A stretch of 64,000 bases of DNA from Candidatus Altimarinota bacterium. GTDB taxonomy: Bacteria; Patescibacteriota; Gracilibacteria; 1-14-2-50-48-13. Location of the stretch: contig JBKBWQ010000001.1 in assembly GCA_046314355.1 (NCBI GenBank), positions 320,001-384,000 of the forward strand. Reading direction: 5' to 3'. This document shows, piece by piece, positions 14,201 through 58,711 of this stretch (position 1 is its first letter; each line of letters starts with the position of its first letter). The notes beneath the pieces are model-generated. The model was not told the DNA's origin. It did not search any database and saw only the letters and a list, made by a program, of their open reading frames with translations. A program made the position numbers and the translations under genes.

Positions 14201-16792
14201 CATCACAAACCGTATACTTTCATTAGCTGCAAAGACTGTCTTTGCTCGTCCATTAGTAGTAGATGCTGTATAAGCTGTAAATCTGAATGTGTCATTCTGA
14301 GTAACTACTGGAGTTACAGGAGGATTTGTAGTTCCATTCGTGATATTTACACTAAATGAGTTTGGTCCGTTCGTTGCAGTTGCAGTCTGTCCGTTGGAGT
14401 TTCGTGCAATGACATTCCAGTAGTAAGTACCGTTTGTAAGTGTAGGAGAAGTAACCTGAGTACCTGTAACACCTGACATATAAAGTACAGGTGAACTAGT
14501 AGTTCCAAAGTATACATCGTAGCTTACTGCATTTGTACCATTCCAGCTAAGATTTACAGTATTTGTAGTTACTGGAGAAGTTACTGGGTTAAGAGTCACA
14601 GATGGAAGCGTAGTGCTTGTCCCTGTTACAAATGTGAAAGGTCCATTGATTGAAGATGTAAATCCATGAGATGCATCTCTTACCTGTACATTCCAGAAGT
14701 AAGGTACATTTGTACTAAGACCTGTAAGGTTGAAAGTAAGTGTTGTTGGATTTGCAGGATTTGAACTTGCTCCGTTTGGAGTAGTGTAGTTTACACAGTT
14801 CGTATTGATCGCTGCAAGTGATGTAGAATAACATACCTGGTATGTGAGCGCATCACTCTCATTGTCAGTACCTATCCATCGTACAGTTGCTGATGTTGCA
14901 GTTACATTTGTAGCATCCACAAGACGTGCGATTGGTGCCTGATTAGTTACTGTTCCTGTTGTTGTAAAGCTTGCGATCTGATCTGTAGAATACACCATGT
15001 ATGTACCGTCAGATACTCGCGCAGTCCAGTAATAAGTAGTACCAGGTGCGAGATTTGTAATTGTGTATGAACCTGTATTTGTAGTTGTGTATACACAGTT
15101 TGAAGCTGCATTATTTCGGTCTGTACTTATACAGATATCTACCGTAAGTGCATTTCCATCAGGATCAGTAGCACTGTAGTTTACAGTAGCTCCGTTCTGA
15201 GTTGGATTTGTAGCAGATCCGAGAGTGATACTTGGCATTCTATTTGTAGAATTATTTGCCATTGTAGTAAAGGAAAGAGGACCATTATCCGTGATTCCCT
15301 GTACTACCTGATCAGCAACTCGTACTGTCCAGTAATATGTCGTACCTGCAATAAGATTTGTAAGAGTTGTACTCTCATTAGATGTTGTTACAGAACAGTT
15401 ATTTGTGATATTTCCAGCAGTTGTTCCAAAACATACAGTGTATGTGAGAGGAGCATTTACATCTGCATCATATCCATTCCAGATAAGAGTAGCAGTTGTT
15501 GCCTGAATATTTCGTGACTCAAGAAGAGTTACATGTGGAGTATTGTTACCGTTGCTTGTACCAGTAGTTGTGAACGCAGCTGTATTAGAGTCTCGAGTTC
15601 CAACATTATTTGTAGCTTTTACAAACCATGTATACTGAGTATTTGCAAGAAGACCTGAAAGTGTAAAAGTTGTAGCATTTCCTGCATTTGTACAAGTGTA
15701 TGCTCCAGCAGTATTTGTTACCTTATAACATATCTGATATGAGATTGTAGTATTCTGAGTATCAGTTGCGCTGTAAGTTAATATAACACTTCCATCATTA
15801 TTTACAGAAGAGTTAAGTGCTCCAAAGTTTGGAAGAGAGTTACCTCCATTATTTGCATTATTAGTAGTGAAATACTGCACTGAGCTTGATGCGCTTCCAG
15901 TCGTATTTGTTCCACGTACCCACCACTGATATGTAGTAGCAGGAGTAAGACCGCTGATTCTATATGAAGCAGCATTTCCTACATTGATACATGTAGCAAT
16001 AGATGCATACTGTACCTGATAACATACTCTAAAGTCAGATGAGTTTGAGCTAGTCCAAGATACATCCGCAGCTGTAGAGTTTACTACAGTGGAAGAAAGA
16101 TTAGAGAAAAATGGAAGATCTCCGTTATTCACAGTACATCCATTTGAATTTCCGTTTGTTCCATAGATTGAGCAAGTACCATTCGTATTTCCGTTCGTTC
16201 CGTAGATTGATCCATTTACATTGTTGTTTGTACCATAGATGGAACCATTAGAGTTTCCATTAGTACCGTAAATAGATCCGTTTACGTTATTATTTGTACC
16301 ATATATTGATCCAGTATAGTTTTCATTTGTTCCATAGATATTTCCGGAAGTATTTGAGTTAGTCCCGTAAATAGATCCATTGCTAGAAGAAGTAGTGTTC
16401 GTTCCATAAATAGAACCATTAGAAGTACTACTTCCATTAGTACCATAAATAGAACTAGTACTAGACGTAGTATTTGTTCCATAGATTGATCCATTGCTGG
16501 AAGAACCTGTATTAGTTCCATAGATAGAACCATTAGAAGTACTACTTCCGTTGGTACCATAGATAGAGCTCGTACTTGAAGTACTATTAGTTCCGTAAAT
16601 AGAACCATTAGAAGAGCTGCCTGAGTTAGTTCCGTAAATACTAGAACTAGAGTTTGTACCATAGATAGAACTGCTGGAAGTTGAAGAACCAGAATTTGTA
16701 CCATAGATACTTTGCGCCGCAACTATTTCAACCTGAGCTACCTGCGTAAACGCAAATGCTGCAAGGATGAAAGCTGTAAAGATTTTTTTCAT
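11231..16792 (-). CDS. Large cell-surface protein: signal peptide, 16x SIYGTN repeats, multiple FN3-like and BsuPI-like Ig domains, Gly linker, three C-terminal SLH domains
   Basis: MKKIFTAFIL signal (ATG 16792); GLTPATTYQWWV-type FN3 motifs; TLTFPTSQMFDVII; FTDIQFHWA, FRPNQPVNRAE and TRAE SLH motifs. Confidence 0.88.
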   Translation of the reverse strand: MKKIFTAFILAAFAFTQVAQVEIVAAQSIYGTNSGSSTSSSSIYGTNSSSSIYGTNSGSSSNGSIYGTNSTSSTSSIYGTNGSSTSNGSIYGTNTGSSSNGSIYGTNTTSSTSSIYGTNGSSTSNGSIYGTNTTSSSNGSIYGTNSNTSGNIYGTNENYTGSIYGTNNNVNGSIYGTNGNSNGSIYGTNNNVNGSIYGTNGNTNGTCSIYGTNGNSNGCTVNNGDLPFFSNLSSTVVNSTAADVSWTSSNSSDFRVCYQVQYASIATCINVGNAASYRISGLTPATTYQWWVRGTNTTGSASSSVQYFTTNNANNGGNSLPNFGALNSSVNNDGSVILTYSATDTQNTTISYQICYKVTNTAGAYTCTNAGNATTFTLSGLLANTQYTWFVKATNNVGTRDSNTAAFTTTGTSNGNNTPHVTLLESRNIQATTATLIWNGYDADVNAPLTYTVCFGTTAGNITNNCSVTTSNESTTLTNLIAGTTYYWTVRVADQVVQGITDNGPLSFTTMANNSTNRMPSITLGSATNPTQNGATVNYSATDPDGNALTVDICISTDRNNAASNCVYTTTNTGSYTITNLAPGTTYYWTARVSDGTYMVYSTDQIASFTTTGTVTNQAPIARLVDATNVTATSATVRWIGTDNESDALTYQVCYSTSLAAINTNCVNYTTPNGASSNPANPTTLTFNLTGLSTNVPYFWNVQVRDASHGFTSSINGPFTFVTGTSTTLPSVTLNPVTSPVTTNTVNLSWNGTNAVSYDVYFGTTSSPVLYMSGVTGTQVTSPTLTNGTYYWNVIARNSNGQTATATNGPNSFSVNITNGTTNPPVTPVVTQNDTFRFTAYTASTTNGRAKTVFAANESIRFVMQVANISTQPQTLTFPDNGDEVRFNVNTSTGTQSFVAHADSTTNTSIVLAPGEVRTFTADTPSGTPTLVDGLYTATAQIRATNSNLPTAPQMQFLVSTTQSQVNYAPVVTLLTPSNNTVVNGGNVTLTWFGFDPNGDALLYDVYFDTNSNPTTLVTQGTSATNYQATGLANGTRYYWRVVARDPQGLTGQSLNGTFTFTTQTATQNPSANANFEYTLITRDGATNNPRTVFIQGQNMVFELQVRNLTQNTQTATINDASRALFRVMDANNQQVFISPSTSGNQSVTFNPGEVKTYNYTWNQAGTNGSQVALGNYILSGDINPTGSNIFPTAATTAFSIVASNNNPNLAPTVNLVSPSDNSNVSTTTTTLTWAGQDPNGNTLNYNVYVATSAANLTGTTPVATNLTTNSYSFTGTNNTRYYWTVRATDGSLPTFAANGPFSFFINTGGTTTTLGLTGNLLLKSTVTGADSVNFARTENVNVQVVVFNPTSTNQTLTFPTSQMFDVIIKNSAGQIVWQSSRGQNFTQGQTSIVVPGNGSVQLASITWNRTDNNGQLVPSGNYTAEAVVTSNNATITIPAKAFTINTSNSSTGGGGGGGGGSSGGGGGGGSQVDTTTPTTIPATDNGSFLTVYGPLKFDLSNGVATVPIKHMDAGNGISIQYDKGTIVTNPDGSRFTGTIYTPSCYTASRLPETAKTSIPNGYTQLYDCFIQYGDLTQTFSPMLRVYGDLSRDITRDVSQPENLAIMFYDPATKTWTKIGGYSDFKGKRFDTYIKKSGVIGFFDTHNTPGTSIPQQPQGTCSAFTDIQFHWAKDVICTLASRGVVSGVTGSLFRPDVNMTRAELVKLVMRLNGKAVAGIDASKAFPDIRGNEWYAGYIAQAKALGIINGYDDGFFRPNQPVNRAEALKIILRGTSGVLQAKIDQEQVIQSSDSDDYTFFQDVRETDWFSRYVAYSFKRGIVSGKNDGLFHGEHFATRAELSKIALMMYEFPNK
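16154..16711 (-). repeat. Coding tandem repeat: 16 copies of (S/N)IYGTN with Ser/Asn/Gly/Thr spacers
   Basis: Counted in the translation; synonymous codons differ between copies. Confidence 0.95.
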
Positions 16793-16946
16793 AATCATTT
16801 GATAATTTAAATGATAGTAAACTGGAAATATATGTATAAGTATCGAAACAGAAAGGGAATACAACAAAAAGAAAATACCGTTTCGTATTCTCTTTTGTTT
16901 TTGTTTGATATTTTGCTCAGTCCCTTTTGAAAGGTTCTGATACACT

Positions 16947-16974
16947 ATCATATGTAAACTTTACTAAATGTCAA
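16947..16974 (-). promoter_or_regulatory. Putative sigma70 promoter of the large SLH protein gene
   Basis: TTGACA-16 bp-TATGAT. Confidence 0.65.
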
Positions 16975-17174: not shown

Positions 17175-17828
17175 TTACTCTCTTCCTACAAAGAGTTTTG
17201 CAATCACATTACCGTCAATACTAGCTTCAAATGTATCTCTATTACCCGTAGACACAAATGTAGCAATTTGCGGAACTCTTATTTTCCCAGAACCGTTATT
17301 TATTACTCCTGAAAAAAACGGACGAGCAGCATTAGAAGTCATGATGAGATTTACAGTTTTGCCATTAAACTCACTGAGATCACTAAATGTCAGATCCACA
17401 TTCTCACCAATGTTTATTCCATTTCCTGAGAGAAAGAGTCGAGCATCCTTTCGAGAATTATTCCCTGATTCTTGTTTCACTACAAAATTTGATCCATTGC
17501 TTTGAGCGATCACTAATCTTGGCTGATCCTTATTTAAAGAAATAGGAGCGAGCTGATTTTTATCTACACTACTTGTAGAAGCTTGCGCACTTGGAATAGG
17601 AGTCTCTTCCACTTCTACCAGTTTGTACTTTTTTACTTCCTTTACTTCTGCACACGCTGTATTTACTCCGCAAGGATATAATTGCCCATTCGTAGAACAT
17701 CCTGCAGTCATAGTCAAGATAGCAGAAGCTGTCATACGTACTAGCTTGTTTGCCATAGACGAAGGCAACATTGATACTTGATTTACTTTGTCTTCTTTGT
17801 TTGTAGTTCCTTCATTGATGAAATTCAT
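17175..17828 (-). CDS. Putative lipoprotein, paralog of 18104-19186 (shared C-terminal beta-rich domain)
   Basis: AILTMTAGC lipobox-like; NGSNFVVKQESGNNSRKD...IDGNV...VGRE shared with its neighbour. Confidence 0.7.
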   Translation of the reverse strand: MNFINEGTTNKEDKVNQVSMLPSSMANKLVRMTASAILTMTAGCSTNGQLYPCGVNTACAEVKEVKKYKLVEVEETPIPSAQASTSSVDKNQLAPISLNKDQPRLVIAQSNGSNFVVKQESGNNSRKDARLFLSGNGINIGENVDLTFSDLSEFNGKTVNLIMTSNAARPFFSGVINNGSGKIRVPQIATFVSTGNRDTFEASIDGNVIAKLFVGRE

Positions 17829-18020
17829 AATAGCAAAATATAATATATAAAAATTTCATCAAGTTATTACTCCTCTCTTCACTTCAAAACAAGACATATA
17901 TATTTTACTTATCCACAAGAATTGTTGGCACCCCACATCAAATAACATTAAAAACAGATCTTGATATTCTGTATGCTCAAAATACTGAGAGCTCTTATAT
18001 TAAGCGAAAAAATTTTACAC

Positions 18021-18052
18021 AAAAAAAAGAAGCACTTTTTAAAGTGCTTCTT
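18021..18052 (-). terminator. Intrinsic terminator
   Basis: AAGAAGCACTT...AAGTGCTTCTT followed by a U tract on the minus strand. Confidence 0.75.
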
Positions 18053-18103
18053 ATAGGTAACTAGATTCCCTCCTTTCTTTTTATTTATAATAATTTTTTG
18101 TTT

Positions 18104-19186
18104 TTATTCGCGACCAACGTAAAGGCGCACACCAACGTTGCCGTCAATATTTCCTTCATAAGTATCACGCACACTAGTACTTACAGATCCAGGGATCTGT
18201 GGTACTGAAATTGTGACACTTCCTCCACTCACTGTGCCGGTGAACGTAGGTCTTGACGAATTTGAAGTCATGATCAAGGTAAAAGTCTTACCATTGAAAT
18301 CATTCAGACCGCCAAATACTAAGTTAACATTATCTCCACTACGGCTGGCATCTAGACCAATTCTAGAATCCTTTCTAGAATTATTCCCAGATTCCTGCTT
18401 TACAACAAAATTAGAGCCGTTTGTTTGGCTTACAACCAATCTGGATTGATCAGCGTTAAGTTGTAGAGAAGTAACGTTATTGCTTGTTGCTGTACGCACT
18501 GTATAGGTAAATGTGAAAGTTGAACCGTTTGAATTAAATCCTTTTAACTCAACACTGTAGTTAGTATCAGCAGATAAACCGCTGTAAGTAACACTTCTTT
18601 CATTATAGAGAGTTTTTACGTCTCCATTATTTAGCCTAGACTCGATTCTTTGGAGGTTTTCACCTCCGAAATTTACAGTGAATCCACTACTGGTGATACC
18701 AGTGGCAGAAACATTGTTGATTACCGGAGAACCTACATTGGCAGATGATGATGGGCTTGGTGTTGGTGTTGAGATAAGTGTAAAAATCACATTACCATTT
18801 TCGATGGTAACTTTGTCAATTTTACGAACTCCTCCTTCTTCAAATGTTACTTCGTAATATGTTGAAGAAATCCTGGTTGCCTTGATCACTGGATAATTAA
18901 GAGCAGAATAATGAGTTAACATTACTCCTTTCTCTTCATTATTATCTAATGAAGTATATTTACCAGGGGCAGTTGATGCAGATGCGCTTGGAGTAGGTGT
19001 CGCATTACCACTAAGGCGGTACTGTTTGCCAGCTCTAATCTCAAATAATCCTTCGCTATCACGGTAAATCCCATCGGGCATTGCTGCCACATTGATAGAA
19101 CTTACTGGAGCACAACCAGTTACGATTGAACCAAAACCACCGAAAGTTAAAATTCCAACTAATATTAAAGTCTTTACGTTTTTCAT
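18104..19186 (-). CDS. Putative lipoprotein with FN3-like domain and shared C-terminal domain
   Basis: IVTGC lipobox; TPTPSAS linkers; YSGLSADTNYSVEL FN3 motif; AAGGAGA SD. Confidence 0.75.
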   Translation of the reverse strand: MKNVKTLILVGILTFGGFGSIVTGCAPVSSINVAAMPDGIYRDSEGLFEIRAGKQYRLSGNATPTPSASASTAPGKYTSLDNNEEKGVMLTHYSALNYPVIKATRISSTYYEVTFEEGGVRKIDKVTIENGNVIFTLISTPTPSPSSSANVGSPVINNVSATGITSSGFTVNFGGENLQRIESRLNNGDVKTLYNERSVTYSGLSADTNYSVELKGFNSNGSTFTFTYTVRTATSNNVTSLQLNADQSRLVVSQTNGSNFVVKQESGNNSRKDSRIGLDASRSGDNVNLVFGGLNDFNGKTFTLIMTSNSSRPTFTGTVSGGSVTISVPQIPGSVSTSVRDTYEGNIDGNVGVRLYVGRE

Positions 19187-19431
19187 AATAAATCTCCTTG
19201 CCTCTCGGCATTCTCTATATCATTTTAATATATTTGGCTTTTGAGATGACTACATCCCTTCAAGGTCAAGTGAGAGATATCCTCTCATAAATCCTCTATT
19301 ACTAATGTAATCACCCTCGCATTTTTATGTATATGCTTTCTTGGGGGAACCTAGTTGTTAAAGAACTTATGACAGGATAAGATATCCTGGTCACTTGACT
19401 TCAAGAAGAAATGTTTGTTTCTCTTAAGTCG
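19187..19431 (-). promoter_or_regulatory. Long structured 5' leader with boxA-like element
   Basis: Long-range pairs 19265-19273/19391-19399 and 19278-19290/19367-19379; GTTCTTTAACAA at 19355-19366. Confidence 0.55.
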
Positions 19432-19436
19432 AGGGT

Positions 19437-19464
19437 ATTATACATAAACTACTTATCTTGTCAA
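19437..19464 (-). promoter_or_regulatory. Consensus sigma70 promoter
   Basis: TTGACA-16 bp-TATAAT. Confidence 0.8.
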
Positions 19465-19609
19465 CATATTTCACAACAATTATTACATTTTGTATATGAT
19501 GCTATATTTTAGCTTCTACCAACGCATTTTATACTTACATTTTTAAAATATTTATAACCTAGATCGAATATTTTAAACTTTTTATATCTTATAGTACAAA
19601 TTTTATTAT

Positions 19610-19638
19610 AAAAAAGCTGCCATAGTATGGCAGCTTTT
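19610..19638 (-). terminator. Intrinsic terminator
   Basis: AAAAGCTGCCAT-loop-ATGGCAGCTTTT. Confidence 0.8.
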
Positions 19639-19663
19639 ATTTTACTCAACAGAAAAAGATTAA

Positions 19664-21016
19664 TTAATACTTAATTTCTCCCCATATGATTCCGGAGAAC
19701 TGTCCAAAACTTGTAAGACCCGAAGGCACTAATACAGCTTTTAGATTGAAATTCAGTAATCCAACCTTGTAATCAAACTCAGGTCCAACACCTACCATCC
19801 AAGATTCTGGGTTTTTCAGTCCATACACACCTATTCTTAATGGAACAGGCGCATAAGGTCTTATGCTCGCACCAGCAAATCCTTCACTGCTCCATCCTAG
19901 AAAGGCAGGGTAGAATTCACCACGACCGGTAAACTTCAGCATTCCTTCAAGAGGTGTGACCTCTATCTCAGCAATACCCGCCGGCACAAGACCATAACTT
20001 CCATAATTATACCGTCCTCCGCCCAATAGACGAAGCGTCACAATATCTGAAAACATTGCCTTGCCGCCGATACCAAAGAATGTGGAGGAAAAGTTAGATC
20101 CAAACGCATTTGGAATCTGCGCTGTTCCTCTTATGTCCGCAGCAGGTGCCACAGAAAAATCTTTAGCAACTTCTACTCCTTCCCACCAAGGTAGTGTCAC
20201 CACAGGCGTTTGAGATGGAATAGGTATTGCAGTTGGTGATGCAGAAGGAACAGGGGATTGGGATTTTTGTCTCTCCAATTCTTTTACCTTCTCTTCAAGA
20301 GCTTTTTGTTCCTGCTGCTGCTGTTTCAACTTCCTTTTTATGTCTTCTAACTCCGGATCTTTTGTAGGTACCGGAGTGGGGGTAGCGAGAACTGTAGGTG
20401 TAGGTGTCGCGACAGGTTTAATACAGTTTCTTCCAAGTTCCTTTAGAGCATCATCTTGTAGCCCTTGGATATATTTATGCCCATCAGTTTTATCCACTAA
20501 CTGGGCAGCAAATATTTCCAGAGTACCAGGAGTAAAAAAATAGGTTTTAGCACTTAAACGTGCCTGACCTAAGTCATCGACTACTTGTTGTGTTTCTCCA
20601 AGTAGTTTATAAGTAACGATTAGTTCATATGGTCTTCCCCGATTCTGGGTTCTTACACCTAATACTAATTTTCCATTTACACAGGAAGAAGTAATAGGGT
20701 TTAATTCCATAGGAGTAACCGCAACTTTTTTGATCGGAACCACCGGTGTCTTTTTTACCGCCGGTTTCACAGGAACTTGTTTTTTTACAACAGGTACCTG
20801 CTTGATCACTTTTTTAGGCTGAATCTTTTTGACTCCTGTATTCTTTTTTGAAGAAGCAGGAGCAATTTTTTTAAGAGTATTCTGCTTCGGTTTCACACTA
20901 GGTGTCACCTTTTTCTTAATTACTTCAGCTTTTTTAGCATATGAGATACTAGCAAAAGTAGGAGTAATAAATCCTGCAGCAATCATACATGCCACAACTG
21001 CGTTTCTAAAAGCCAT
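19664..21016 (-). CDS. Secreted protein: Lys/Pro-rich N-terminus, small Cys-pair domain, coiled coil, C-terminal beta-barrel-like region
   Basis: Signal peptide; LEDIKRKLKQQQQEQKALEEKVKELE; amphipathic Gly/aromatic strands ending WGEIKY; AAGGAGG SD. Confidence 0.6.
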   Translation of the reverse strand: MAFRNAVVACMIAAGFITPTFASISYAKKAEVIKKKVTPSVKPKQNTLKKIAPASSKKNTGVKKIQPKKVIKQVPVVKKQVPVKPAVKKTPVVPIKKVAVTPMELNPITSSCVNGKLVLGVRTQNRGRPYELIVTYKLLGETQQVVDDLGQARLSAKTYFFTPGTLEIFAAQLVDKTDGHKYIQGLQDDALKELGRNCIKPVATPTPTVLATPTPVPTKDPELEDIKRKLKQQQQEQKALEEKVKELERQKSQSPVPSASPTAIPIPSQTPVVTLPWWEGVEVAKDFSVAPAADIRGTAQIPNAFGSNFSSTFFGIGGKAMFSDIVTLRLLGGGRYNYGSYGLVPAGIAEIEVTPLEGMLKFTGRGEFYPAFLGWSSEGFAGASIRPYAPVPLRIGVYGLKNPESWMVGVGPEFDYKVGLLNFNLKAVLVPSGLTSFGQFSGIIWGEIKY

Positions 21017-21312
21017 ATACGGCCTCCTTTTTATCTATAATACTTTATTAACGTTTTTATATTCATGTACTTTCAAAAAAATTAATCTTTCCTGTTTGTA
21101 AATGAACATTTGCAATCTGCACGACTTTTAATATCGCCAACTTGCGATATATGTATAATGTACCCTTATATATAAGTCAATAAAAGCAGAGCTATTAGAA
21201 TGTTTTATTGAAACTAAAATACTCTATATGTATAGTTTAACAAAGTTCTGTCGTTCAGCATAGCAGAGAATGACTACTCGAATAGGGAATATAAACCATA
21301 TATCTAATTATC

Positions 21313-21355
21313 TTTATAGTTTATAGTTGACTATAAACTATAAACTATATACAAT
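21313..21355 (+). promoter_or_regulatory. Promoter overlapped by an operator-like inverted repeat; leaderless geometry
   Basis: TTTATAGTTTATAGT-TG-ACTATAAACTATAAA; TTGACT-17 bp-TACAAT with ATG starting 7 nt after the -10. Confidence 0.7.
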
Positions 21356-21361
21356 AAGATC

Positions 21362-22345
21362 ATGAAAACACTTACAGGACAAAAAATAGTAGAATATATA
21401 GAAGAGCATTCTCAAGCAACAGCAAAAGAGTTGTCAGAGTTTTTGAATATAAGTCCACAGGCGCTTTTTCGACAGCTTGCAAAGCTGCAGGAACGCGGGC
21501 AGATTACAAAGATAGGAACACCGCCTAAGGTGTTTTATCTACCTGTAACAAAAGGGAAGGAGGCTATCCTGGAAAGCACAGATCTCACCGCTGAAGAAAG
21601 ACAAGTTATTGATACTCAATATATCCACATCACTCCGCTTGGGGAGAAAAAAGAAGGAATAGAAGGCTTTATATACTGGACTGAAAAAACACATCAGCCT
21701 TTTCATAAGACTGCTCATGAATACATTCAGGCTATAAAGAAGTATGACAAATTTAAAGATCATGGACTTATTGATGCGACTTCAAAGCTGCAGAATACTT
21801 TTGAGGAATTTTTTCTAGATAAGCTCTATTATCTAGACTTCTATAGCATTGAACGCTTCGGAAAGACGAAGCTTGGCCAGCTTCTCCTCTACGCAAAACA
21901 AAGTCAGAATATGAGACTAATGAAAGAGCTCATTGCAGTTATTGAACCAAATCTAAAGGAACTTATAGTGAGATGTAATATTGACGCAATAGGGTTTATC
22001 CCTCCGACAGTAAAGCGTGAAACGCAATTTATGAAGGTACTCGAGAGCGCACTCCAGCTCAATATTCACAAGCTGCCTATCATAAAAATAAAATCAGAGA
22101 TTATGGTTCCTCAGAAGACTTTAACAAAACTTGCCGATAGAATAGAGAATGCTCAAAAAACCATGTTCGTTGATACGAAAACAGTATACAATAATGTTCT
22201 CCTTATCGATGATGCGGTAGGGTCGGGAGCAACTCTCAATGAAACAGCTGGTCAGATCCGGAGAAGAGGTCTCTGTACCGGAAAGATTATCGGAGTGGCA
22301 ATCACAGGAAGCCTCAATGGATTTGATGTTATAAGCGAAGTATAA
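21362..22345 (+). CDS. Winged-HTH + phosphoribosyltransferase-domain protein
   Basis: ATAKELSEFLNISPQALFRQLAKL; VLLIDDAVGSGATL PRPP-binding loop. Confidence 0.85.
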   Translation: MKTLTGQKIVEYIEEHSQATAKELSEFLNISPQALFRQLAKLQERGQITKIGTPPKVFYLPVTKGKEAILESTDLTAEERQVIDTQYIHITPLGEKKEGIEGFIYWTEKTHQPFHKTAHEYIQAIKKYDKFKDHGLIDATSKLQNTFEEFFLDKLYYLDFYSIERFGKTKLGQLLLYAKQSQNMRLMKELIAVIEPNLKELIVRCNIDAIGFIPPTVKRETQFMKVLESALQLNIHKLPIIKIKSEIMVPQKTLTKLADRIENAQKTMFVDTKTVYNNVLLIDDAVGSGATLNETAGQIRRRGLCTGKIIGVAITGSLNGFDVISEV

Positions 22346-23477: not shown

Positions 23478-24599
23478 TTAAAAGCTCTGCTTCTTGTACC
23501 AGTCCCAATCATAGGAAAGTACAGTAGTATCCCATGGGCGGTAAGATGAGTATACCTTTTTTGCCGTCTGATGAGTAAACTCCTTTCCATCAAATACCTT
23601 ATTTTTCATAAACTCATATTTCTTGGCAAGTTGAACGTTTCCTTTTGCAAGTACTTTAAACTCGTCTGCGTGAAGAGTATAGTAGTTGAAGGTCTCTGCG
23701 AAATCCTCAAAAGGATCAGAGCTTGCATATCCGCTTACAAAACCTTCATTATTTGTAGAAATTTTCTCATTTGAATTCTTCCAAGAGATTGCGTAGAACT
23801 CACTGCTCACATCATCTGTAGCGATAGAAGTATCTCCATCCATAAATCCTGAAGCATTCCCTCGTCCGCTGCCAGTAAAATGTCCAAGATCCACCACATG
23901 TCCAAGCTCATGTATTGCCACTCCTACCAATTCACTATCTTTCATATCGCTTACTCGTAAGATCATTGTATTAGATCCAGCAAGTCCTCTAGGTCCTTCT
24001 GAAGATGTCTTGAGTGTTAGATTTACAAGAGGATTTGTAAACTTTGCAGGAAATTTCTGAAACATTGCAGCAAGAGTCTGTTCTATATGTGCCGTCTCTG
24101 CAGAAGAAAGCTCGTTAGTAGCATCCTGGATAGTAAAATTACGTATCAACTCAGAAAGAGACTTCTGCTTAGTATTATTTACTGTTGCTACCGTTTCCTT
24201 TACTGGTGCTGGAGCATCGACTACTACAGGTGAAGAAGAAAGAATAGTGTTAACAACAGAGACACTTTCTTCCTCTACTATTTCAATTTCATTTTTAGGA
24301 CTCCACTGCGTATCTGGGATTATCTCAATAGGCTGAGGATTGAAACTTATCACTGAAGTATTCTTCTCATCAACTCTCGGCATATTATCAAATATACCTT
24401 CTAGGAGCATATGCACATCAAAGGATGCAATACGCTCACCAAATGTAGGAGCCATACCAAACACACCTCCTAAAGAAGAGCTGTCTGCAACTATCACATT
24501 CTCATTTGCCACTGTATGGAAAGCAACCGGTTCAGTTACACTTGCAATAAGCGTAAAAGAAACTACTGCCGTAAAAATGGTTGTAAGTGTTTTTTTCAC
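23478..24599 (-). CDS. Secreted zinc metallopeptidase (gluzincin-type)
   Basis: Signal-like start VKKTLTTIF (GTG 24599); HELGH; YASSDPFEDFAETF. Confidence 0.8.
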   Translation of the reverse strand: MKKTLTTIFTAVVSFTLIASVTEPVAFHTVANENVIVADSSSLGGVFGMAPTFGERIASFDVHMLLEGIFDNMPRVDEKNTSVISFNPQPIEIIPDTQWSPKNEIEIVEEESVSVVNTILSSSPVVVDAPAPVKETVATVNNTKQKSLSELIRNFTIQDATNELSSAETAHIEQTLAAMFQKFPAKFTNPLVNLTLKTSSEGPRGLAGSNTMILRVSDMKDSELVGVAIHELGHVVDLGHFTGSGRGNASGFMDGDTSIATDDVSSEFYAISWKNSNEKISTNNEGFVSGYASSDPFEDFAETFNYYTLHADEFKVLAKGNVQLAKKYEFMKNKVFDGKEFTHQTAKKVYSSYRPWDTTVLSYDWDWYKKQSF

Positions 24600-24799
24600 A
24601 AAATAAAGGAGAAACAAAATAAAATTCTCTCTCTTTATATGTTTATGTGTGATAGTAAAAGGGAAGCATTGACGAATAGCTTTGACCCCCTGAACGTGAA
24701 AGCAATATATACTTGTTTTACAAAATGTCAATATATTATAGAAAGATATTTATATTATCTTTGAGACAAATATCTCTACACATTTTATATGCTAATTTT

Positions 24800-58159: not shown

Positions 58160-58711
58160 CTATCTTTCATCTAATAAAATTTGATAGAACAGCTGAGCAT
58201 TATTTTCTGACATTTGGAATATAATCTCATTTTCAAATTGTCCTTCAAATATTTGAATTTGCTTTAACCAGTCTTCTTCTGACATCTTTAAAAGCTGAGT
58301 ATGTCCTGAGTACCGTATAAAACCTTTGTTTTTTTCATTGAGAGAAATTAACTTTTCTCTTGCTTCCAGTTCTTTAAAATCCCCTTTAAGCCTGATAAGC
58401 TGAAAAGCTACTTGTTGTTCTTTGGCCATCATTTCAAGTTCCTTTATTATTGCTTCATTTTGTAGAGTTCCGACGATACAAACAGAGAGATCTGCTTCAA
58501 TAAAATTCTTTGTCAGTCCTAGAAGATTTTTGTACATACAGGTTCCTCGACCTTTATTTGTTTGTACTGTAAAGTGAAATGATAGATCGTTTGTATCAAT
58601 GAATGCATACTCAATATTTTCTTGAATAAATCTTTCTCTCACAAGTTGCATGAGTGAAGATTTTCCAGAAGAAGATGGTCCTCTTAATATAGTTATTTTT
58701 TTCATTGACAT
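58160..58711 (-). CDS. P-loop nucleotide-kinase-like protein (AAA_33-like)
   Basis: ILRGPSSSGKS Walker A; ELEARE lid-like motif. Confidence 0.7.
   Translation of the reverse strand: MSMKKITILRGPSSSGKSSLMQLVRERFIQENIEYAFIDTNDLSFHFTVQTNKGRGTCMYKNLLGLTKNFIEADLSVCIVGTLQNEAIIKELEMMAKEQQVAFQLIRLKGDFKELEAREKLISLNEKNKGFIRYSGHTQLLKMSEEDWLKQIQIFEGQFENEIIFQMSENNAQLFYQILLDER

Follow-up and report, generated by a model that had tools for sequence, protein, structure and literature searches.

The untranslated leader of an orphan lipoprotein gene can be folded, over two thirds of its length, into one long imperfect hairpin. Of the readings considered, the likeliest is a cis-acting element that would govern the stability or processing of the mRNA of a strongly expressed envelope lipoprotein. 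This reading is held tentatively, its chances being judged somewhat below even. Transcription from a perfect sigma-70-type promoter would yield an mRNA with a leader of ~245 nt, in which the long hairpin would form and leave the ribosome-binding site open. The hairpin could then work in one of two ways: as a 5′ structure slowing the 5′-end-dependent decay by RNase J or, more specifically, as a processing site for RNase III. After an RNase III cut, the 3′ arm would refold into a small 5′-terminal hairpin, as in Staphylococcus aureus cspA. We infer the use of the promoter, the start site and any cleavage or effect on half-life or translation. If real, the element would be one more long structured 5′ UTR tuning an abundant envelope protein, here in an uncultivated bacterium with the RNases Y, J and III; even then, the leader hairpin would raise no new question.

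The locus lies in a stretch of 64,000 nt (the window) of a Candidatus Altimarinota bacterium, corresponding to positions 320,001 to 384,000 of contig JBKBWQ010000001.1 (assembly GCA_046314355.1). Coordinates refer to the window, except those with the prefix C1, which refer to contig C1 of the genome. The transcription unit is organized as follows:

18104..19186, minus strand: orphan lipoprotein gene, 360 aa, signal peptide with lipobox VTGC
19184..19198, minus strand: Shine-Dalgarno sequence (SD) AGGAG (19198-19194), 7-nt spacer and start codon ATG (19186-19184)
19187..19431, minus strand: untranslated leader, ~245 nt by prediction, no ORF of at least 30 aa, no Rfam match at E ≤ 1
19437..19464, minus strand: sigma-70-type promoter, TTGACA (19464-19459), 16 nt, TATAAT (19442-19437), 12/12 match
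19612..19638, both strands: strong bidirectional terminator hairpin ending the upstream gene 19664-21016
18027..18052, minus strand: terminator 3′ of the lipoprotein gene

A preliminary description of this DNA had reported a consensus promoter, TTGACA-16-TATAAT, followed by a long non-coding leader in front of a lipoprotein gene, and both were recovered here. Transcription is predicted to start near 19431-19429, which sets the length of the leader. The spacer holding promoter and leader measures 477 bp. Because the upstream gene 19664-21016 stops at a strong bidirectional terminator, the lipoprotein gene needs a promoter of its own and, with terminators on both sides, therefore forms its own monocistronic unit.

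The encoded lipoprotein has Ser/Thr/Pro-rich linkers, a weakly fn3-like middle part (fn3, E 0.005) and a C-terminal domain in common with its paralogue 17175-17828 (58% identity over 127 residues). In this paralogue (minus strand), only the C-terminal domain is shared, and translation likely starts at an internal ATG, giving a lipobox (..LTMTAGC); the region upstream of it has no similarity to the leader. Both lipoproteins belong to an envelope gene cluster together with a secreted protein of 450 aa and an SLH/fn3 S-layer protein of 1906 aa. The secreted protein (19664-21016, minus strand) contains repeats rich in Lys, Pro and Val, a coiled-coil stretch and a C-terminal region whose last residue is aromatic, and no Pfam family was found in it above cut-off. 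The S-layer gene has an 11/12 promoter at 16974..16947 and a leader of ~150 nt (z -2.7), in which (window 16788-16974, minus strand) a 5′-terminal hairpin starting at +2 and a 15-bp hairpin are predicted. The listed ATG (16951) of the S-layer ORF falls inside this promoter, and the signal peptide MKKIFTAF... begins near 16791. Two further genes are found nearby. The 417-aa ORF at 23478-24731 (minus strand) resembles a zincin-type metallopeptidase (Peptidase_Mx, E 7e-9; ATLF, E 4e-6, just under cut-off), and the gene at 21362-22345 (plus strand, 327 aa), divergent from the envelope cluster, has an N-terminal winged-helix domain and weak phosphoribosyltransferase-like matches in its C-terminal part.

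Within the leader, the following elements were located:

19252..19414, minus strand: long imperfect hairpin, ~165 nt, 59 bp, minimum free energy (MFE) -69.3 to -69.6 kcal/mol, z -5.13
19373..19389, minus strand: local palindrome CAGGAUA-UCU-UAUCCUG in the 5′ arm, equilibrium probability 0.006
19271..19287, minus strand: local palindrome UGAGAG-GAUAU-CUCUCA in the 3′ arm, probability 0.00003 in the full leader
19355..19366, minus strand: boxA-like 12-mer GTTCTTTAACAA in the 5′ arm, fitting GYTCTTTAANA
19199..19210, minus strand: small hairpin UGCC-GAGA-GGCA (GNRA), abutting the SD

The long hairpin is made of a 5′ arm (19414-19333) and a 3′ arm (19322-19252), joined by helices of 10, 1, 9, 5, 4, 14, 5, 2, 2, 3 and 4 bp. 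The long-range arms proposed earlier (19265-19273 with 19391-19399, and 19278-19290 with 19367-19379) reappear in the same register within this predicted structure. The first pair is 9 nt long and fully complementary; the second is part of a 21-nt pair, 19278-19298 with 19359-19379, which is 81% complementary and contains a 13-nt stretch with one mismatch. Weak outer helices (19428-19420 with 19246-19238) prolong the hairpin towards the predicted 5′ end, to within ~3 nt. These outer helices, of 3 and 4 bp, start around positions +3 to +4 and +8 to +9; the 10-bp helix, the first strong one, follows at about +17. The mean pair probability of the leader fold is 0.90, and eight of the 77 predicted pairs are G-U.

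The fold is much more stable than expected from the composition. The minus-strand leader RNA reaches -69.6 kcal/mol, compared with -47.1 ± 4.4 kcal/mol for 200 dinucleotide shuffles (z = -5.13), none of which folded as well; the comparison with shuffled controls, which the preliminary description had suggested as a check, thus turned out in favor of the structure. The complementary plus strand folds less well (z = -3.74, with one of 200 shuffles as good), and over a segment of 180 nt the minus strand is better by 12.6 kcal/mol. The long hairpin remains the MFE structure up to 70 °C. The G+C content of 16S rRNA is used as a rule of thumb for thermophily, and by this rule the value of 50.6% found in this genome does not suggest a thermophile. 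An RNA thermometer was rejected, given that the predicted structure leaves the SD free and does not change between 37 and 70 °C. An intrinsic attenuator was also discarded, no U-tract being present after the hairpin. A leader peptide was considered for the 12-codon ORF starting at 19288 and rejected: its SD-like GAGGA (found by eye) is separated from the AUG by only 3 nt and hidden within the stem.

To place the hairpin in its genomic context, an intergenic background was built from 5174 segments of 180 nt in the 323 gaps of contig C1 that measure 180 nt or more, using a rough ORF-based gene map. In the G+C-adjusted ranking, the segment with the hairpin comes 92nd out of 5174 and its gap 35th out of 323. 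When the 12 gaps at the top of this ranking were refolded, strong terminators, tRNA genes and palindromic repeats of a multi-copy family were among the structures found. Although the hairpin is genuine and not random, it does not stand out as an outlier from the intergenic background of its own genome.

These ranks bear on the most serious alternative, namely that the inverted repeat has no function as RNA. In that case, the transcribed spacer would happen to contain a DNA palindrome that arose by chance or is decaying, left over perhaps from an inverted duplication or an old insertion. We regard this as unlikely, while giving it real weight. Besides the modest rank of the gap, it is consistent with the fact that both strands beat their shuffles and that an internal strand test for RNA-level selection was not significant (six G-U against three A-C among the transition-type mismatches of the arms). 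The leader is also a single orphan copy, conserved in none of the sets searched, in a genome rich in intergenic palindromic repeats of another family. Against it, the leader belongs to no repeat family of the genome, its imperfect arms with eight G-U pairs favor the transcribed strand, and the hairpin occupies precisely the space from a consensus promoter to a strong SD, which it leaves open. An integron attC site, as we take such sites to be built, was rejected as an origin of the palindrome, which ends without terminal inverted core sites and has nothing similar beside the neighboring genes.

The other repeat family consists of multi-copy intergenic palindromes whose units resemble TAATTGGG/CCCAATTA. 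Flanked on both sides by short AGTAA-type repeats, the palindromes mostly follow directly on terminators, and they form the most stable intergenic folds in the genome. Outside the window, they occupy the following gaps of contig C1:

C1 222009-222435
C1 606402-606673
C1 633546-633791
C1 650272-650565
C1 744626-744885
C1 1008733-1009287
C1 1224071-1224585

Compared with REP/MITE-like repeats, the leader likewise contains an inverted repeat that is long, imperfect and intergenic. It differs by its single copy (by BLAST and by the covariance model described below), by having no relation to the repeat family of the genome, and by its position after a promoter instead of a terminator.

For both the leader and the gene, the search for relatives returned little. 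By BLAST, the leader matched itself alone in its own genome (next best match 30 nt, E 0.064) and nothing in 40 relatives. A covariance model (R1), constructed from the single leader sequence and its MFE structure, recovered in the own genome the locus only, plus its own reverse strand at E 0.03, and none of 150 class genomes gave a match at E ≤ 0.1. A 25-mer of the 5′ arm had no match in metagenome contigs or in genome contigs, and the leader had none in phage records. For the gene, a search of 200 class genomes yielded its own paralogue and one marginal match (E 7e-4, 23% identity, 90 aa, internal stop). Among metagenome contigs, 494 pattern matches contained no relative, and in a set of 5.8 billion proteins (candidates of 198-630 aa) only the protein itself and its paralogue were retrieved. 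The collection of homologous leaders, another check that had been put forward, thus found none in the 40 relatives, the 150 class genomes or the metagenome and genome contigs. Beyond the paralogue of the gene, neither leader nor gene has a homologue in any set searched, and as a single orphan sequence the leader cannot define an RNA family. The earlier idea of a novel ncRNA family accordingly gained no evidence from conservation, no second copy or relative being present in any set searched. Comparison with the covariance models of Rfam 15, also suggested before, linked the leader to no known cis-regulatory family (riboswitch, T-box or leader): a 5-kb search returned nothing in 19187-19464 at E ≤ 10, and a 331-nt search of the leader only two eukaryotic snoRNA models (E 1.5 and 9.8).

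The two local palindromes had led the preliminary description to propose mutually exclusive folds. Both local pairings do exist at 19373-19389 and 19271-19287. When both are enforced, the energy is -62.2 instead of -69.3 kcal/mol, a cost of 7.1 kcal/mol, and even so the long stem is altered in its middle part only; the alternative folds are populated at less than 1%, and the exclusive states are thus not borne out. The two local hairpins moreover amount to a single observation, because whenever one strand of a stem is palindromic, its partner must be so too. On the modelled energies, a two-state switch is unsupported thermodynamically. According to the predictions, the 3′-arm palindrome would form only with the 5′ arm removed.

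The ribosome-binding site was examined in the same way. In the full leader, the SD is predicted to be accessible, with an unpaired probability of 0.73-0.92, and the TGCC-GAGA-GGCA hairpin said to abut it is indeed found at 19210-19199. After in silico removal of the 5′ arm, with the new 5′ end at 19300, 19290 or 19288, the 3′-arm palindrome forms with a probability of 0.63-0.72; for a start at 19295, this probability is only 0.36. A new 5′ end at 19285 or 19280 instead lets the released 3′ arm base-pair with the SD, which is then unpaired with a probability of at most 0.13. Judging from these in silico results, a cleavage might act in either direction, depending on where the RNA is cut.

This last pairing is an argument for a regulated switch or protein-binding leader, in which the hairpin would withhold an anti-SD-like 3′ arm until a trans-acting factor or a cleavage frees it, thereby closing the ribosome-binding site. 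The drop from 0.73-0.92 to at most 0.13 and the presence of a local palindrome in each arm are compatible with such a switch, but we consider it improbable in view of the poor energy of the alternative folds, the redundancy of the two hairpins and the absence of any match to a ligand-binding or known regulatory family in Rfam. The sequence AGGATATCT, present in both arms ~105 bp apart, was rejected as an operator: of its 52 occurrences in the genome, 47 fall in coding sequence, which does not look operator-like.

Another possibility is that the consensus promoter is not the one used by the gene, so that the mRNA would start near the ATG, or the promoter would produce a separate small RNA. Perfect promoter matches are indeed little in excess of chance, with four in the genome and 2.9 expected from its composition (1.69 Mb, 38% G+C). 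As to sequencing runs, the only one listed with this DNA is a DNA run, which may be its source, and no RNA run is listed. However, all four are intergenic and correctly oriented, each facing a same-strand gene 28-251 nt downstream, and three of the four precede genes for envelope proteins (one SLH-domain protein and two lipoproteins). The site at 19464..19437 is the only 12/12 match within 18000-21500. On the minus strand from 19436 to the ATG, no other promoter-like site matches at 9/12 positions or more, and no terminator separates the hairpin from the gene. The TTGACA-TATAAT site is therefore taken as probably the real promoter of the lipoprotein gene, and a start near the ATG or a separate small RNA appears quite improbable. 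The leaders behind perfect promoters differ in structure: the one of the other lipoprotein gene is 86 nt long with a hairpin at its very 5′ end, and the one of the SLH gene is 102 nt long and unstructured; the former speaks for a stability or processing role of leader hairpins in such genes, the latter against it.

The preliminary description had further noted an exact boxA match and deduced Nus-dependent control. The 12-mer GTTCTTTAACAA is present just inside the long stem, on the minus strand at 19366-19355, as was claimed, and nusB and rnc, whose presence had been named as a point to verify, are both encoded in the genome. A NusB/NusE boxA element, as in rRNA leaders and in E. coli suhB, might modulate elongation or translation of the lipoprotein mRNA. 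Several observations are in agreement with this: the 12-mer fits GYTCTTTAANA and occurs once in the genome (0.6 expected), nusB is present, and the match in the leader is the sole consensus match on contig C1 lying upstream of, and in sense with, a gene. In addition, the boxA-like motif of the genome's own 16S leader, GACCTTTGATA, is also inside a long-range processing stem, and one class relative (L019) has the exact 12-mer GTTCTTTAACAA in its 16S leader.

Nevertheless, the frequency of the consensus is that of chance: the 1.69-Mb genome has 25 matches where its composition would predict 16.6, and of the 23 matches on contig C1 three are intergenic, where 2.4 are expected. A second match within the window, at 58369-58379 (plus strand), lies in coding sequence. 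The consensus GYTCTTTAANA is gamma-proteobacterial; in the section of Baniulyte et al. 2017 (PMC5725501) that we draw on, it was derived for gamma-proteobacteria and candidates were taken only within 50 nt of the start codon, whereas the leader match is 170 nt away from it. No GYTCTTTAANA match exists at the rRNA genes of this genome, where the 16S motif GACCTTTGATA and the 23S motif GATTTTTGAAA are each identical to the leader motif GTTCTTTAACA at only 7 of 11 positions (hand count). In the predicted fold, eight of the 12 bases are paired, 19366-19359 being part of the 14-bp helix. Rho was not found above cut-off in this genome, which is 98% complete (best match 42.5 bits, cut-off 509). Seventeen 16S upstream regions, from the own genome and 16 class relatives, were also inspected by eye, and their boxA-like elements vary widely; as a sequence, the leader 12-mer is within the range of the class 16S motifs, but this range is loose. 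We regard the boxA-like 12-mer as matching by chance, and Nus-dependent control on an exact boxA, with matches at chance frequency, differing rRNA motifs, a paired element and no Rho found, is abandoned here as very improbable. The resemblance to the boxA/Nus sites of rRNA and suhB-type leaders, in the portion of PMC5725501 used for comparison, is confined to the consensus match in a leader and the presence of nusB; chance frequency, deviating own rRNA motifs, distance from the start codon, pairing and the failure to find Rho set the leader apart. As a lesson, an exact match to an E. coli-type boxA says little in an AT-rich genome of another lineage with a different rRNA-leader motif.

The rRNA genes themselves are unlinked, the 16S gene (C1:1206759-1208242) and the 23S gene (C1:1366156-1369178) being 158 kb apart. 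The solitary 16S gene has a promoter and a terminator of its own as well as a leader/trailer processing stem, and the 23S gene has its own promoter and is followed by the 5S gene.

A combination of the preceding ideas can also be imagined. In such a lineage-specific device, either NusB/NusE bound to the boxA-like 5′ arm or a cut by RNase III would free the anti-SD-like 3′ arm and thus close or re-open the SD. If true, an orphan surface lipoprotein would be regulated at the post-transcriptional level, and this in an uncultivated bacterium whose small genome yielded neither Rho nor RNase E above cut-off. We consider such a device highly improbable.

The reading of the hairpin as a stability or processing element is in line with the decay machinery encoded in the genome. 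RNase III was identified above cut-off (TIGR02191, 236 bits, C1:591074-591712), as were RNase J and RNase Y, and RNase E/G was not found above cut-off. The set of RNases Y, J and III corresponds to a Bacillus-like decay set. The nusB gene is located directly upstream of rnc on the same strand (C1:591074-592168). The stem of the hairpin offers ~33 near-continuous base pairs. Its helices of 9, 5, 4 and 14 bp, parted by loops of 1-6 nt and with the 10-bp helix below them, form an extended double strand of at least about two helical turns, as expected of an RNase III substrate. Of the RNase III-processed switch suggested in the preliminary description, the role for RNase III thus stays plausible, with rnc and a suitable stem, and the switch lacks thermodynamic support. 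A stabilizing role of the 5′ structure would go together with a strong ribosome-binding site and a 5′-end-dependent nuclease, and both are present in the form of AGGAG 7 nt before the ATG, predicted to be accessible, and RNase J. The agreement with a classical 5′-terminal stabilizer is less clear, because the 10-bp helix begins ~17 nt from the predicted 5′ end.

Stabilizing 5′ UTRs are known from highly expressed genes for envelope or secreted proteins, such as ompA and aprE. The lipoprotein gene resembles this type in the strength of its promoter and SD, in its long structured leader and in its envelope product, and the neighboring S-layer and lipoprotein genes also have 5′-proximal hairpins here. 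It differs in that the protective stem of those UTRs is at the very 5′ end, whereas only weak helices reach the predicted end of the present leader, which is also much longer. The long 5′ UTRs of S-layer genes belong to the same type; they form transcript-stabilizing structures, as exemplified by the Lactobacillus slpA UTR in the part of a review that deals with them (PMC3666127).

The closest system for the processing option is cspA of S. aureus. There, according to the portion of the original report considered here (PMC3386247), RNase III cuts a long 5′-UTR hairpin, by which the half-life increases from less than 2.5 min to more than 16 min, and the remaining half refolds into a short 5′ hairpin protecting against RNase J1. 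The cspA leader, as presented in that portion, measures 113 nt and is conserved among staphylococci, in contrast to the leader of ~245 nt described here, which has a hairpin of ~165 nt, no sequence relation to cspA and no known relative. Moreover, the SD of the lipoprotein mRNA is predicted to be already open in the unprocessed leader, and cleavage is hypothetical in this case. Both systems, again by the same portion of the cspA report, have in common a long 5′-UTR hairpin upstream of the SD and an organism possessing RNase III and RNase J. As in cspA, the 3′ half of the leader can form, in silico, a short hairpin at the new 5′ end.
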